From: a virus
Lineage: Duplodnaviria; Heunggongvirae; Uroviricota; Caudoviricetes
IMG/VR virus record: IMGVR_UViG_2563366850_000002
Direction: 5' to 3' (one strand)
DNA length: 3,198 nt
Shown here: piece by piece, positions 1 to 3,198 of the stretch
How the letters are laid out: each line of letters begins with the position of its first letter
Position numbering within the stretch: position 1 is the first letter of the stretch
Notes under the pieces: generated by a model
Database searches by the model: none
What the model saw: only the letters and a program-made list of their open reading frames with translations
Told to the model about the DNA's origin: nothing
Position numbers and translations under genes: made by a program

Positions 1-351
1 ACCGTCGCCCCCGCCCGTCTGCGTGAGGCCATCAAGTCAGGCATGGCGGAGACGAATGCGGAGCTGTACGAGTACCGCGAACAGAAAATTGCCGCCGGTT
101 TTACGCGTCTGGCGGACGTCCCGGCGGACGACATCGACGGTGAAAGCATCAAGGTTTTTTACTACGAGCGCGCCGTGTGTGCGATGGCGACCGCGTCGCT
201 TTATGAGCGTTACCGCGGCGTGGATGCCAGTGCGAAAGGCGACAAGAAGGCCGACAGCATTGACAGCACCATTGATGAACTGTGGCGGGATATGCGCTGG
301 GCGGTGGCGCGTATCCAGGACAAGCCGCGCTGCATCGTGAGTCAAATCTGA
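1..351 (+). CDS. L: Head completion/stabilisation protein gpL (P2-like), C-terminal ~116 codons plus stop; 5' end lies outside the window start and the N-terminal part is at 3015..3198
   Basis: Frame 1 is open from position 1 and reads TVAPARLREAIKSGMAETNAELYEYREQKIAAGFTRLADVPADDIDGESIKVFYYERAVCAMATASLYERYRGVDASAKGDKKADSIDSTIDELWRDMRWAVARIQDKPRCIVSQI, ending at TGA 349..351. This matches my recollection of the P2 gpL C-terminus. The stop overlaps the next start by 1 nt (TGATG), as expected for adjacent phage late genes. Confidence 0.85.
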   Translation, partial: TVAPARLREAIKSGMAETNAELYEYREQKIAAGFTRLADVPADDIDGESIKVFYYERAVCAMATASLYERYRGVDASAKGDKKADSIDSTIDELWRDMRWAVARIQDKPRCIVSQI

Positions 352-554
352 TGAAGACCTTTGCGCTACAGGGCGACACGCTCGACGCCATTTGTGTCCG
401 GTATTACGGGCGCACTGAGGGCGTGGTCGAGACTGTGCTCGCCGCAAATCCGGGACTGGCTGAACTGGGTGCGGTGCTGCCGCACGGCACCGCCGTCGAA
501 CTGCCCGACGTTCAGACCGCGCCCGTGGCTGAAACTGTCAATCTGTGGGAGTAA
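351..554 (+). CDS. X: Tail protein X (P2 gpX-like, small LysM-like protein), 67 aa, apparently intact
   Basis: ATG at 351..353 and TAA at 552..554. The translation MKTFALQGDTLDAICVRYYGRTEGVVETVLAANPGLAELGAVLPHGTAVELPDVQTAPVAETVNLWE matches recalled P2 gpX in length and sequence. Native L-X-Y order is preserved. Confidence 0.85.
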   Translation: MKTFALQGDTLDAICVRYYGRTEGVVETVLAANPGLAELGAVLPHGTAVELPDVQTAPVAETVNLWE

Positions 555-557
555 CGC

Positions 558-842
558 ATGACAGCAGAAGAAAAAAGCGTCCTGTCGCTTTTCGTGATTG
601 GGGTGCTGATTGTTGTCGGCAAGGTGCTTGCCGGTGGTGAACCCATCACCCCGCGTCTGTTTATCGGGCGCATGTTGCTCGGTGGTTTTGTCTCGATGGT
701 TGCCGGTGTTGTTCTGGTGCAGTTTCCTGACCTGTCACTGCCTGCGGTGTGCGGCATCGGCTCCATGCTGGGTATCGCCGGTTATCAGGTGATTGAGATT
801 GCCATTCAGCGCCGCTTTAAGGGCAGGGGGAAGCGGAATTAA
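558..842 (+). CDS. Y: Holin (P2 gpY-like), 94 codons; the last 2-3 codons may derive from the junction with the V fragment
   Basis: ATG at 558 is preceded by GGGAG about 7 nt upstream. The translation MTAEEKSVLSLFVIGVLIVVGKVLAGGEPITPRLFIGRMLLGGFVSMVAGVVLVQFPDLSLPAVCGIGSMLGIAGYQVIEIAIQRRFKGRGKRN has hydrophobic transmembrane segments and a basic C-terminus, and matches recalled P2 holin gpY. TAA at 840..842. Confidence 0.85.
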   Translation: MTAEEKSVLSLFVIGVLIVVGKVLAGGEPITPRLFIGRMLLGGFVSMVAGVVLVQFPDLSLPAVCGIGSMLGIAGYQVIEIAIQRRFKGRGKRN

Positions 843-1104
843 AACGGCCAGCGTGACGGCTTCTGATTCTGTTACTGCCACGGTGCCGGTGGTCATGGTG
901 AAAGCATCAACCCGCGTCACCCTGGACACACCGGAGGTGGTCTGCACCAACAGGCTGATTACCGGCACGCTGGAAGTGCAGAAGGGCGGGACGATGCGCG
1001 GCAACATTGAACACACCGGCGGTGAACTCTCATCAAACGGGAAGGTACTGCATACCCATAAACACCCCGGCGACAGCGGCGGCACAACCGGGGGACCTCT
1101 ATGA
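832..1104 (+). pseudogene. V: 3' fragment (~90 codons) of baseplate spike gene V (P2 gpV-like); the 5' ~120 codons are missing and there is no native start
   Basis: Frame 1 reads SGIKTASVTASDSVTATVPVVMVKASTRVTLDTPEVVCTNRLITGTLEVQKGGTMRGNIEHTGGELSSNGKVLHTHKHPGDSGGTTGGPL, ending at TGA 1102..1104. This matches the recalled C-terminal third of P2 gpV. The six-frame ORF 793..1104 starts at an ATG inside the holin gene in another frame and is not a native start. The ATGA stop/start overlap with W is preserved. Confidence 0.8.
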
Positions 1105-1448
1105 CAGCGCGTTATCTCGGAATGAATCGCAGTGATGGCCTGACTGTCACTGACCTTGAGCATATCAGCCAGAGTATCGGCGATATCCTGCGCACGCCGG
1201 TCGGCTCACGGGTGATGCGTCGTGATTACGGCTCGTTGCTGGCGTCAATGATTGACCAGCCGCAGACCCCGGCGCTTGAGTTGCAGATTAAGGTCGCCTG
1301 TTACATGGCGGTGCTGAAATGGGAACCCCGCGTCACCCTGTCATCTGTCACCACGGCGCGCAGTTTTGACGGGCGAATGACGGTCACGTTAACCGGCCAG
1401 CACAACGACACCGGCCAGCCACTTTCGTTAACCATCCCTGTGAGTTGA
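1101..1448 (+). CDS. W: Baseplate wedge protein gpW (gp25/GPW family), 115 aa, intact
   Basis: ATG at 1101 overlaps the V stop (ATGA). The translation MTARYLGMNRSDGLTVTDLEHISQSIGDILRTPVGSRVMRRDYGSLLASMIDQPQTPALELQIKVACYMAVLKWEPRVTLSSVTTARSFDGRMTVTLTGQHNDTGQPLSLTIPVS matches recalled P2 gpW with the expected length. TGA at 1446..1448. Confidence 0.9.
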   Translation: MTARYLGMNRSDGLTVTDLEHISQSIGDILRTPVGSRVMRRDYGSLLASMIDQPQTPALELQIKVACYMAVLKWEPRVTLSSVTTARSFDGRMTVTLTGQHNDTGQPLSLTIPVS

Positions 1449-1452
1449 AACT

Positions 1453-1626
1453 ATGCCGATTATCGACCTGAACCAGCTACCCGCACCGGATGTGGTCGAG
1501 GAGCTGGACTTTGAAACCATTCTTGCCGAACGCAAGGCGACACTGATTTCCCTTTATCTGGGAGCTTTACGCCGCAACCGGTGTGGATGCCGTACCGATT
1601 CGTTTTGCAGGCTCTTACCAGCGTGA
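1453..1626 (+). pseudogene. J: 5' fragment of baseplate gene J (P2 gpJ-like): about 35 native codons (1453..~1557), then out-of-frame read-through into FII-derived sequence, stopping at TGA 1624..1626 (57-codon ORF)
   Basis: ATG at 1453 lies 4 nt after the W stop. The N-terminus MPIIDLNQLPAPDVVEELDFETILAERKATLISLY matches recalled P2 gpJ, then the sequence diverges (LGALRRNRCGCRTDSFCRLLPA*). Native gpJ is about 300 aa. Confidence 0.8.
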
Positions 1627-1861
1627 CGATACCGGCGAAACGGTGGCCGTCGAGGTGGTCATGCGTGGACGTCAGAAAGAAATCGACACCGGCGAGGGTA
1701 AACAGGGAGAAGACACCGAGTCGAAAATCTCCGTGGTCTGCACTTATTTCCGGCTGACGATGGACGGTAAGGAGCTGGTCGAAATTGACACCATCAACAT
1801 GATTGAGAAGGTGAACGGCGTCGACCGGCTGGAGCAACACCGCCGCAATATCGGCCTGTGA
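1553..1861 (+). pseudogene. FII: 3' fragment (~100 codons) of tail tube gene FII (P2 gpFII-like), copy 1; no native start codon
   Basis: Frame 2 reads (F)IWELYAATGVDAVPIRFAGSYQRDDTGETVAVEVVMRGRQKEIDTGEGKQGEDTESKISVVCTYFRLTMDGKELVEIDTINMIEKVNGVDRLEQHRRNIGL, ending at TGA 1859..1861. This matches the recalled C-terminal ~60% of P2 gpFII. There is an in-frame stop at 1544..1546. The tracked ORF 1583..1861 begins at an internal GTG with no Shine-Dalgarno. Confidence 0.8.
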
Positions 1862-1868
1862 TTTTCAT

Positions 1869-1889
1869 CCGGTCAGCCTGGCTGACCGG
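1869..1889 (+). other. Perfect inverted repeat/stem-loop in the FII-E intergenic region (CCGGTCAGC ctg GCTGACCGG), copy 1
   Basis: A 9-bp perfect stem with a 3-nt loop, 8 nt after the FII stop. No run of T follows it, so it is not a canonical intrinsic terminator. It may be an RNA stability or attenuation element within the operon. Confidence 0.5.
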
Positions 1890-1917
1890 TTAACCCTGAT
1901 TCATAAGTGAGAAAACC

Positions 1918-2106
1918 ATGAACAAAGAAAATGTCATTACCCTGGACAATCCGGTCAAACGTGGTGAGCAGGTTATCGAACAGGTCACGCTGATGAAACC
2001 CAGTGCCGGGACGCTGCGCGGTGTCAGTCTGGCAGCGGTCGCGAACTCCGAAGTCGATGCACTGATTAACGTGCTGCCGCGCATGACGAACGCAAGGCGA
2101 CACTGA
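1918..2106 (+). pseudogene. E: Truncated copy of tail assembly chaperone gene E: 57 native codons fused at the duplication junction to 5 non-native codons (NARRH) and a stop
   Basis: ATG at 1918. MNKENVITLDNPVKRGEQVIEQVTLMKPSAGTLRGVSLAAVANSEVDALINVLPRMT is identical to the start of the full E copy at 2478 except N versus K at one residue. It diverges after 2088 into J-derived sequence read out of frame. The frameshift site and E' extension are absent from this copy. Confidence 0.8.
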
Positions 2107-2112
2107 TTTCCC

Positions 2113-2421
2113 TTTATCTGGGAGCTTTACGCCGCAACCGGTGTGGATGCCGTACCGATTCGTTTTGCAGGCTCTTACCAGCGTGACGATACCGGCGAAA
2201 CGGTGGCCGTCGAGGTGGTCATGCGTGGACGTCAGAAAGAAATCGACACCGGCGAGGGTAAACAGGGAGAAGACACCGAGTCGAAAATCTCCGTGGTCTG
2301 CACTTATTTCCGGCTGACGATGGACGGTAAGGAGCTGGTCGAAATCGACACCATCAACATGATTGAGAAGGTGAACGGCGTCGACCGGCTGGAGCAACAC
2401 CGCCGCAATATCGGCCTGTGA
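2113..2421 (+). pseudogene. FII: 3' fragment of tail tube gene FII, copy 2 (duplicate of 1553..1861)
   Basis: Identical to copy 1 at a 560-nt offset except one synonymous difference (1786 T versus 2346 C, ATT/ATC Ile). TGA at 2419..2421. Confidence 0.8.
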
Positions 2422-2428
2422 TTTTCAT

Positions 2429-2449
2429 CCGGTCAGCCTGGCTGACCGG
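2429..2449 (+). other. Same inverted repeat/stem-loop, copy 2 (inside the duplicated unit)
   Basis: Identical sequence at a 560-nt offset. Confidence 0.5.
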
Positions 2450-2477
2450 TTAACCCTGATTCATAAGTGAGAAAACC

Positions 2478-2753
2478 ATGAACAAAGAAAATGTCATTAC
2501 CCTGGACAATCCGGTCAAACGTGGTGAGCAGGTTATCGAACAGGTCACGCTGATGAAACCCAGTGCCGGGACGCTGCGCGGTGTCAGTCTGGCAGCGGTC
2601 GCGAACTCCGAAGTCGATGCACTGATTAAGGTGCTGCCGCGCATGACGGCACCGATGCTGACCGAGCAGGAAGTCGCCGCGCTGGAACTGCCTGACCTTG
2701 TGGCGCTGGCCGGTAAGGTGGTCGGTTTTTTGTCGCCGAACTCGGTGCAGTAA
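2478..2753 (+). CDS. E: Tail assembly chaperone gpE (P2-like), 91 aa, intact; analogue of lambda G
   Basis: ATG at 2478, TAA at 2751..2753. The translation MNKENVITLDNPVKRGEQVIEQVTLMKPSAGTLRGVSLAAVANSEVDALIKVLPRMTAPMLTEQEVAALELPDLVALAGKVVGFLSPNSVQ matches recalled P2 gpE. The native position after FII is preserved. Confidence 0.9.
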   Translation: MNKENVITLDNPVKRGEQVIEQVTLMKPSAGTLRGVSLAAVANSEVDALIKVLPRMTAPMLTEQEVAALELPDLVALAGKVVGFLSPNSVQ

Positions 2754-2905
2754 CGTTCCCGAAAAATCTGTCGGTCGATGACCTGATGGCGGATGTGGCA
2801 GTGATATTTCACTGGCCGCCATCAGAACTGTATCCCATGAGCCTGACCGAACTCATCACATGGCGCGAAAAGGCGCTCCGGCGAAGCGGAAACACGAATG
2901 AGTAA
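2478..2905 (+). CDS. E': gpE+E' (P2-like), made by programmed -1 ribosomal frameshift at 2726..2732; extension ends at TAA 2903..2905 (about 142 aa total)
   Basis: The slippery heptamer T_TTT_TTG sits in the E frame near the E 3' end. The -1 frame downstream is open and reads VAELGAVTFPKNLSVDDLMADVAVIFHWPPSELYPMSLTELITWREKALRRSGNTNE*, matching the recalled P2 E' C-terminus. Confidence 0.8.
2726..2732 (+). promoter_or_regulatory. Programmed -1 frameshift slippery sequence (TTTTTTG) for E to E+E' recoding
   Basis: The heptamer T TTT TTG is in the X_XXY_YYZ register relative to the E frame (codons TTT 2727..2729, TTG 2730..2732), with an extended open -1 frame downstream. Recoding at this kind of site in P2-like E/E' and lambda G/GT is established knowledge. 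Confidence 0.75.
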
Positions 2906-3014
2906 CAATGTAAAATTACCGAATGCGCCCCGCGCCAGGGCGGCACGCCGGTCAGTGAGGGTGAATCACCTGACACTGCACCGGCGTCCACCGCCCGACT
3001 TTTCAGAGGTGGTC

Positions 3015-3198
3015 ATGATGACGCTGATTATTCCGCGAAAGGAGGCTCCCGTGTCCGGTGAGGGTACGGTGGTCATCCCGCAACCGGCAGGCGACGAGCC
3101 GGTGATTAAAAACACGTTCTTTTTTCCCGATATCGACCCGAAGCGCGTCCGGGAACGTATGCGCCTTGAGCAGACCGTCGCCCCCGCCCGTCTGCGTG
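3015..3198 (+). CDS. L: Head completion/stabilisation protein gpL, N-terminal 61 codons; continues beyond the window end and is in frame with 1..351
   Basis: ATGATG at 3015 is preceded by GAGGTGG 4 nt upstream. The translation MMTLIIPRKEAPVSGEGTVVIPQPAGDEPVIKNTFFFPDIDPKRVRERMRLEQTVAPARLR matches the recalled P2 gpL N-terminus. The last 25 nt are identical to window positions 1..25 and the frames agree. Confidence 0.85.
   Translation, partial: MMTLIIPRKEAPVSGEGTVVIPQPAGDEPVIKNTFFFPDIDPKRVRERMRLEQTVAPARLR
3174..3198 (+). repeat. Terminal 25-nt identity with window positions 1..25 (ACCGTCGCCCCCGCCCGTCTGCGTG), consistent with circular or tandem-unit topology with a 3173-bp unit
   Basis: Direct comparison of the window ends. 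Joining them reconstitutes a 510-nt (169 aa plus stop) gpL ORF, the expected size for P2 gpL. Confidence 0.9.

Follow-up and report, generated by a model that had tools for sequence, protein, structure and literature searches.

Reduction of P2-type prophages by short-homology deletions is a well-known process, and the pflA/pflB site of complete genomes carries both intact and differently decayed P2 prophages. NCTC9041 has an independently decayed P2 prophage with an I'/FI' fusion at this site, which is also the attachment site of the remnant in contig KE137287.1 described below, and ETEC1701 has one with a V'/H'/FI' fusion at the yegQ site. The window studied here, which is the whole stretch of 3,198 nucleotides that was analysed, is very probably an ordinary piece of such a decayed P2-type prophage, with late-gene blocks joined by deletions and a duplication, and without special function. 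As in the window, the late operons of NCTC9041 and ETEC1701 were trimmed by internal deletions, and FII-E-E'-T-U-D-ogr was kept at the host junction. Their breakpoints were different, and these finished genomes held neither a tandem duplication nor a self-closing join.

The closest intact relative was the prophage between pflA and pflB, which was 99.6-99.9% identical in two blocks, and over the intact pflA/pflB prophages (e.g. E. coli USDA-ARS-USMARC-51408, NZ_CP104114.1) the identity of the window was 97.8-99.9%. Gene order and orientation were the same as in phage P2 and these prophages, and the E/E' frameshift site was kept. Compared with both, the window lacked about 11 kb through two deletions, together with the late promoters, cos, ori and the early genes, and had an additional 560-bp copy and a head-to-tail join. 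No record covering at least 80% of the window was found among phage records, plasmids and complete E. coli genomes, and a literature search on the accession numbers found no mention.

The window proved to be one entire contig of the Escherichia coli KTE156 draft assembly (GCA_000351965.1, scaffold KB733421.1), and the strain name was carried by the protein records ELF21248.1, ELF21251.1 and ELF21253.1. Of the searches made, it was the exact protein match of ORFs arising at the joins that led to this source. It occupied positions 9444-12641 of the retrieved scaffold locus, with an N-run at each side (6695 and 4290 bases). The initial annotation was silent on this gap-flanked draft-contig status and on the terminal repeat. 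The scaffold was 3.24 Mb long; P, N and M' preceded the window in it, and T, U, D and ogr came after it.

Five segments of P2 (NC_001895), all on the plus strand and with 97-100% identity, tiled the window fully, which confirmed the segment origins that the initial annotation had wanted checked against P2. Window 2918-3198 plus 1-832 corresponded to P2 5903-6990, 828-1564 to P2 10667-11403, 1554-2088 to P2 19066-19600, 2088-2124 to P2 11367-11403, and 2114-2919 to P2 19066-19871. Identity and gene order thus placed the window in the late operons of a P2-type (Peduovirus) phage, of which three blocks were retained, namely M/L spacer-L-X-Y, V'-W-J' and FII'-E-E'-T'.

All genes and fragments lay on the plus strand. 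The head completion gene L was split in the linear window into a 3' part (1-351) and a 5' part (3015-3198), and was whole only via a 25-nt terminal direct repeat (1-25 = 3174-3198, 25/25 identical), across which the P2 coordinates were continuous, giving a closed unit of 3173 bp. Positions 3015-3173 and 1-351 together encoded the full 169-aa L (PF05926), identical to P2 L at 168/169 residues. X (351-554, 67 aa, PF05489) was intact and identical to P2 (67/67), and the holin Y (558-842, 94 aa, PF04550) matched at 91/92 residues, its C-terminus RN replacing the native last residue Q because the deletion join fell 7 nt ahead of the native stop. A V fragment without the native start codon followed (833-1104, residues 123-211), which held the spike trimer and apex motif (PF18715, PF18946). 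The gp25-like baseplate wedge gene W (1101-1448, 115 aa, PF04965) was intact, with 115/115 residues identical. Next to it, residues 1-35 of J (1453-1556, P2 match, no Pfam family) continued out of frame into FII, forming a 57-aa junction ORF at 1453-1626.

The tail tube gene FII was present as two fragments, copy 1 at 1557-1861 (residues 72-172, 101/101 identical to P2, PF04985 profile positions 76-165) and copy 2, a P2 match, at 2117-2421. After copy 1 came an extra, truncated E (1918-2106) with 57 native codons and five from the J fragment, which was deposited as a hypothetical protein (ELF21253.1). Intact E (2478-2753, 91 aa, 91/91 identical) was followed by the E' part (2786-2905), and by the P2 annotation E+E' (2478-2905) would be read through a -1 frameshift at the TTTTTTG run (2726-2732), with PF10109 and PF06528 across E/E'. 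The first seven codons of the tape measure gene T (2898-2919) ran in frame through the M-L intergenic spacer (2920-3014 = P2 5905-5999) into L. The deposited "hypothetical proteins" A31A_01581 and A31A_01583 were found to be ORFs created by the joins.

From the letters, L, X, Y, W and E/E' had been described as intact, and intact or nearly so they are, except that L is split in the linear window. The larger genes were absent or fragmentary in the window as stated. By comparison with P2, V, J, FII and T were fragments.

Four distinct joins connected the segments, all in direct orientation and with 2-3 nt of microhomology; the probability of such microhomology at four blunt joins is 6e-4. At the Y>V join (831..832, P2 6990/10667, microhomology AA), K, lysA, lysB, lysC, R, S and orf30 are gone, together with P_V, the 5' portion of V and the terminator of the O operon. 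At the J>FII join (1554..1556 and again 2114-2116, P2 11403/19066, microhomology TTA), the remainder of J and the genes I, H, G, fun(Z) and FI are gone, together with P_F, the 5' portion of FII and the terminator of the V operon. The other two joins run backward, one from E to J (2087..2088, P2 19600/11367-11369, microhomology CG), which is the join of the 560-bp duplication, and one head-to-tail from T to the M/L spacer (2918..2919, P2 19871/5903, microhomology AC). The two tandem copies of the 560-bp unit (1524-2083 and 2084-2643, plus strand) differed at 1526/2086, 1786/2346 and 2070/2630, with one private SNP per copy, so at least two versions of the segment were present among the reads.

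Both deletion joins were identical in a second assembly (GCA_000408785.1, KE137287.1), which was gapless from the joins through T, U, D and ogr to pflB, focA and ycaO. The remnant is therefore real and its deletions are inherited, and it is chromosomal, lying beside host genes at the attachment site. In the collections searched, the Y>V and J>FII joins were on record in two assembly contigs only (three samples). Exact searches gave no match for J>FII in viral, genome and metagenome contigs, for T>L in viral and metagenome contigs, or for Y>V and E>J in viral contigs. The E>J and T>L joins were absent from KE137287.1, and the backward joins were not found in complete E. coli genome, plasmid or phage records.

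The "non-functional remnant" of the initial annotation is borne out, since the virion genes are lost and the same deletion joins recur in an assembly reaching host DNA. The window, and with it the locus, has lost K, lysA, lysB, lysC, R and S and the whole of I, H, G and FI, and of V and J most is gone and of FII half; with such losses the remnant locus cannot build a virion. The window likewise held no complete head, tail and lysis set with cos, ori/A and int, as a complete or inducible P2-type prophage would. The suggested domain search returned only virion and lysis families of Pfam (GPL, tail X, holin 3_2, spike/apex, gp25, tube, TAC_7 and GpE), and the minus-strand ORFs gave no family match in the profile search. 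PADLOC detected no defence family in 10 ORFs of both strands, in agreement with the statement that no defence, toxin-antitoxin or other accessory system is present. An Rfam search of the window found no RNA family. A free replicon or satellite, a defence island and a structured RNA were all rejected (P2 tiling, Pfam, PADLOC, Rfam).

The reasoning that only small late genes survived turned out to be empty. Of the 21 P2 genes in 5903-19871, 15 encode proteins of 176 aa or less, and nine of these 15 (K, lysA, lysB, lysC, R, S, I, G and FII) were lost or truncated. When three blocks of 0.7-1.1 kb were placed at random, no gene above 176 aa was intact in 91% of the trials. Survival of small genes is thus no more than chance and a by-product of the small retained blocks (0.7-1.1 kb).

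The absence of late promoters was confirmed for the window itself. The annotated P2 activator sites and starts of P_P/P_O (3016-3127), P_V (10239-10308) and P_F (17555-17628) fell outside the retained segments. A late-promoter consensus TGT-N12-ACA was dropped since it matched none of the three annotated P2 activator sites; the pattern TTGT-N12-MMA, derived from the annotated sites, recovered all three and gave a single chance-level antisense match in the window. The proposed promoter prediction thus yielded no Ogr-type site beyond chance level, with none ahead of the operon within the window, and the sigma-70 scan gave 0 sites. The wider claim that native promoters are missing even for the intact genes was an overreach, for P, N and M' lie upstream in the scaffold and the P_P/P_O region sits inside the N-gap. 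The absence of promoters is a matter of where the contig ends and not a property of the locus.

L, X and Y are usually transcribed from P_O about 2.8 kb upstream, and P_O may lie upstream of the window in the scaffold gap. The two deletions removed P2 8399-8417, 9397-9433 and 15639-15666, which are the annotated attenuator and terminator of the O operon and the terminator of the V operon, so W and E/E' are now joined on behind L-X-Y and no annotated terminator separates them. Because the blocks have lost the operon terminators that lay between them, L, X, Y, W and E/E', if expressed at all, would depend on read-through from the Ogr-dependent P_O upstream of the window.

In the preferred reading of a decayed P2-type prophage, two illegitimate-recombination deletions at short homologies of 2-3 nt would have joined three blocks of an intact P2 late region. 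The backward joins E>J and T'>M/L spacer would most likely record that the remnant was duplicated or amplified locally in tandem, probably through similar template switching at short homologies, and the assembler would then have collapsed the array into one circular-looking, gap-padded contig. The joins, both forward and backward, resembled those of short-homology illegitimate recombination or template switching (1-5 nt); this likeness was read from the join sequences only, with two of the four joins independently verified. For a tandem duplication, the join itself and the normal exit 19871>19872 in the neighbouring contig were observed, the entry 5902>5903 would fall in a gap, and the gap sizes did not fit. 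Either a local tandem duplication that was collapsed or a mis-assembly underlies the backward joins.

Mis-assembly is a possible, though less probable, explanation for the backward joins, and perhaps for the placement of the contig too. Chimeric or mis-patched reads of a short-read and jumping-library assembly would then have produced the 560-bp repeat and the self-closing join, and the true locus would either be a simple remnant, as in the second assembly, or hold an intact prophage into whose gap a remnant contig had been misplaced. Of the four distinct joins, the "chimeric artefact" of the initial annotation may be right only for that of the 560-bp duplication and for T'>L, which no other contig shared. 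In favour of mis-assembly, the backward joins occurred in one draft contig alone among the collections scanned for each of them. The unit length (2.6-3.2 kb), which would be in the range of jumping-library inserts, also counts for it, as do the odd 25-nt self-overlap and contig ends at no meaningful point. Nevertheless, the backward joins showed the same 2-nt microhomology as the verified deletions, which would not be expected of blunt ligation chimeras, a loop walked twice is insufficient to account for the differing private SNPs in the two 560-bp copies, and the assembler kept both exits from P2 19871, implying read support for each.

Several features of the scaffold sit badly with the preferred reading of a remnant with a collapsed duplication. 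M' and the T contig lay 14183 bp apart, compared with 14207 bp for the intact P2 late region and 13224 bp for the closest intact prophage, i.e. within 24-960 bp of an intact late region depending on the reference used; the large flanking gaps thus bring the total to about an intact late region, which favours an artefact, and not to the approximately 6 kb of a remnant with one extra unit. Gaps as integer multiples of 3173-bp or 2613-bp units were rejected for poor fit. The contig ended inside L (P2 6154 and 6178), away from any join, and the entry adjacency 5902>5903, whose expected position is inside the gap, was absent from the KTE156 assembly. In favour of the preferred reading, in contrast, the neighbouring T contig repeated window 2771-2919 exactly and then ran onward into T, and the scaffold held both adjacencies 19871>19872 and 19871>5903. 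Again against it, the T-ogr contig differed from KE137287.1 at 10/4618 sites, whereas the window differed from it at private SNPs only. This mismatch, which is also in favour of an artefact, hints that two P2-like sequences were possibly mixed in one assembly.

It is unlikely that inside the KTE156 remnant the 3173-bp unit really forms an amplified head-to-tail array, or a circular by-product of one, with the seven codons of T' fused in frame to L. Without operon terminators, L-X-Y-V'-W-J'-FII'-E-E' would then form an endlessly repeating transcription unit, and a multi-step microhomology-mediated rearrangement would have been caught in the act during prophage decay. A domesticated module under selection, in which the holin Y or L, X, W and E/E' were co-opted or given a helper or satellite role, is very improbable. 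The surviving ORFs were 99-100% identical to P2 without frameshifts, ogr was kept downstream, and one long transcript is possible with the terminators deleted; but the non-coding spacer and the dead V, J and FII fragments were equally identical, which indicates recent decay rather than purifying selection, the joins had the narrow distribution given above, and the retained set had no coherent function and no accessory or defence family. A free 3173-bp circle of P2 late pieces in the culture, such as an excised or recombination minicircle, is scarcely credible. The 25-nt terminal repeat, the P2 coordinates continuous over the ends and T' in frame into L would suit it, yet all bases were late structural DNA without replication origin, A gene (P2 ori 29892), cos or integrase, no replication family was found in any ORF, and no small plasmid record matched. 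By established P2 biology such a circle could be neither replicated nor packaged, and the scaffolder had linked the contig into the chromosome between M' and T.

Taken as a whole, the description of the window's interior given by the initial annotation held and so did its remnant interpretation, while its inferences from gene size and on native promoters did not. The sequence is already deposited and annotated as E. coli KTE156, the decay process is already known, and the element is not a functional module. Caution is needed with such contigs, where "absent" promoters and large genes, like an apparent circularity, result from where the contig ends and from choices made in the assembly. The biological importance is small, one further whittled-down P2-type prophage being added. 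Should the backward joins prove real, the locus would offer a natural case, on a small scale, of deletions and duplications arising one after another through template switching at homologies of 2-3 nt.

The whole window could be tiled by five segments of the P2 reference (NC_001895), all in one shared orientation by local blastn, and it is P2 late DNA of a defective prophage. The M-L spacer, L, X and Y minus its last 7 nt were found from 2918-3198 into 1-832 (P2 5903-6990), followed by the last 277 nt of V, W and the first 112 nt of J at 828-1564 (P2 10667-11403). The 3' 308 nt of FII and the first 171 nt of E were located at 1554-2088 (P2 19066-19600), the J fragment again at 2088-2124 (P2 11367-11403), and the 3' part of FII, E, E' and the first 22 nt of T at 2114-2919 (P2 19066-19871). 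The first 25 nt of the window are identical to its last 25 nt and the P2 coordinates are continuous across the ends, so the contig is self-closing, with a repeat unit of 3173 bp.

The proteins X (67/67), W (115/115) and E (91/91) were identical to those of P2, and L matched at 168/169 residues, only if read across the window ends. Y matched at 91/92 with a new C-terminal RN; the deletion joining Y to V begins 7 nt ahead of the Y stop codon, leaving holin Y (558-842) nearly whole with only its last residue altered, whereas endolysin K and the spanins were deleted. Fragments were left of V (residues 123-211), J (residues 1-35), FII (residues 72-172, two copies) and T (codons 1-7), together with a truncated extra copy of E (residues 1-57). 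The slippery run of E/E' was kept at 2726-2732, and the matches at 2705-2727 that a simple scan suggested as a terminator were instead part of the E/E' -1 frameshift hairpin and T-run (2705-2737). A near-perfect palindrome of 21 nt, CCGGTCAGCCTGGCTGACCGG, was present in both copies of the FII-E spacer (1869-1889 and 2429-2449); it is native P2 sequence with no T-run after it.

The window corresponds exactly to 9444-12641 of L004, a locus within scaffold KB733421.1 (GCA_000351965.1). This source was reached through exact matches to three join-created ORFs, namely the 94-aa Y, the 57-aa J'/FII' ORF and the 62-aa truncated E, and according to its deposited proteins the strain is Escherichia coli KTE156. 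Runs of N, 6695 and 4290 long, flank the window, and three N-gaps (L004 271-1175, 2749-9443 and 12642-16931) break the prophage region. On the upstream side the scaffold carries a partial P, separated by a gap from N and from M, of which the first 120 codons are present; on the downstream side it has the last part of E' followed by T, U, D and ogr.

The two deletions, Y to V (831-832) and J to FII (1554-1556), are genuine and represent ordinary prophage decay, since the same joins are carried by the sister-assembly locus L005 (GCA_000408785.1, KE137287.1), an intact relative (L010) exists between pflA and pflB, and other decayed P2 prophages are known from finished genomes. The scaffold of L005 starts inside L, at P2 6312; it is gap-free across E, E', T, U, D and ogr and onwards to pflB, focA and ycaO. 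The four distinct joins of the window showed microhomologies of AA, TTA, CG and AC when measured against L010, and for blunt joins the chance of at least two shared bases at all four would be about 6e-4.

The two backward joins, E to J (2087-2088) and T' to the M/L spacer (2918-2919), were unique to this contig, and L005 had neither the latter nor the tandem duplication of 560 bp (1524-2083 and 2084-2643, three differences between copies). The window was otherwise identical to L005 except for one private SNP in each copy (2070C and 2346C) and the join base 2086. Both 2346C (pair 1786/2346) and 2070C (pair 2070/2630) were absent from L005 and from P2, and the copies each differed from L010 at a single position. 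A private base in each copy means that at least two versions of the segment existed among the reads. We give roughly even chances to a genuine local tandem duplication that the assembler collapsed; it is favoured by these different private SNPs and by the microhomology signature that the backward joins share with the verified deletions. In addition, an exact copy of window 2771-2919 is present in the neighbouring T contig, where the sequence goes on into T, so the assembly contains both exits from P2 19871.

Against such a duplication, neither contig end coincides with a join, both lying within L, and the distance from M' to T in the scaffold (two gaps plus the window, 14183 bp) is close to the length of an intact late region (P2, 14207 bp; L010, 13224 bp), not to the remnant with one extra unit (about 6 kb), and no integer count of units fits. 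Moreover, the T-U-D-ogr contig of KTE156 (L004 16932-20285 plus the tail of L003) differed from L005 (2058 onwards) at 10/4618 sites, unlike the window, which had no differences beyond its private SNPs; at the seven differing sites checked, this contig agreed with L010. The contrast hints that two P2-like sequences may have been mixed, that one strain may hold a second P2-like sequence, or that recombination may have occurred. Mis-assembly could be behind the two backward joins, a plausible reading to which we attach a rather modest probability. A free circle, which the closure of the contig on itself would allow, is very improbable, as it would lack an origin, the A gene and a cos site.

Around the repeat unit, the first seven codons of T run in frame without a stop through a 32-codon spacer to the L start (2898-3198 into 26-351), giving a predicted fusion ORF of 208 aa. 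The fusion is probably coincidental, because relatives too have an open frame ahead of L (phage R18C annotates a longer L). A minus-strand ORF of 116 aa (735-1085; L004 10178-10528) with no family match was among the recorded gene calls, and two ORFs created by joins (1453-1626 and 1918-2106) were deposited as hypothetical proteins A31A_01581 and A31A_01583; annotation artefacts are the probable explanation for all three.

The initial annotation stated that no native late promoter is retained, and this held for the window: all three annotated P2 activator sites and transcription starts lie outside the retained segments. The pattern TTGT-N12-MMA, read off the annotated sites, recovered all three in P2 and gave a single antisense match inside L at chance level, while TGT-N12-ACA was dropped because its positive control on P2 failed. 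A sigma-70 scan of the window returned nothing. The P_P/P_O region (P2 3016-3127) lies inside the scaffold gap spanning P2 2429 to 3943, so its loss cannot be asserted, and the promoter argument is an artefact of contig boundaries. The attenuator and terminator of the O operon and the terminator of the V operon, as annotated in P2, were removed by the two deletions. If P_O is present, a single transcript could extend from O to D by way of L, X, Y, V', W, J', FII', E and E'. The survival of only small genes was uninformative, as 15 of the 21 P2 genes within 5903-19871 are already of 176 aa or less, and nine of these 15 were lost or truncated. When three blocks (1088, 737 and 806 bp) were placed at random, none of the larger genes stayed whole in 91% of trials; the size argument is an artefact of small retained blocks.

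Plus-strand ORFs matched only virion and lysis families in Pfam, as had been expected, and the long minus-strand ORFs had no Pfam match. PADLOC detected no defence family among the window ORFs and Rfam no RNA family, and the window did not qualify as a complete prophage, an autonomous element, or a defence or toxin-antitoxin system. Its identity, its synteny, its position within chromosomal sequence and the reproducibility of the deletion joins all point to a defective prophage. The intact prophage L010, in a finished genome, is 99.6-99.9% identical to the window in two of the blocks, while the finished genomes of NCTC9041 (also at the pflA/pflB site) and ETEC1701 (at yegQ) carry P2 prophages that decayed independently and show different internal deletions. 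NZ_CP104114.1 (1692317-1713505) exemplifies an intact prophage at the pflA/pflB site. The reading as a non-functional remnant was right; that as a chimeric artefact may apply to the two backward joins, but not to the Y to V and J to FII deletions. For a specialist, this is the unsurprising, ordinary decay of a P2-type prophage.
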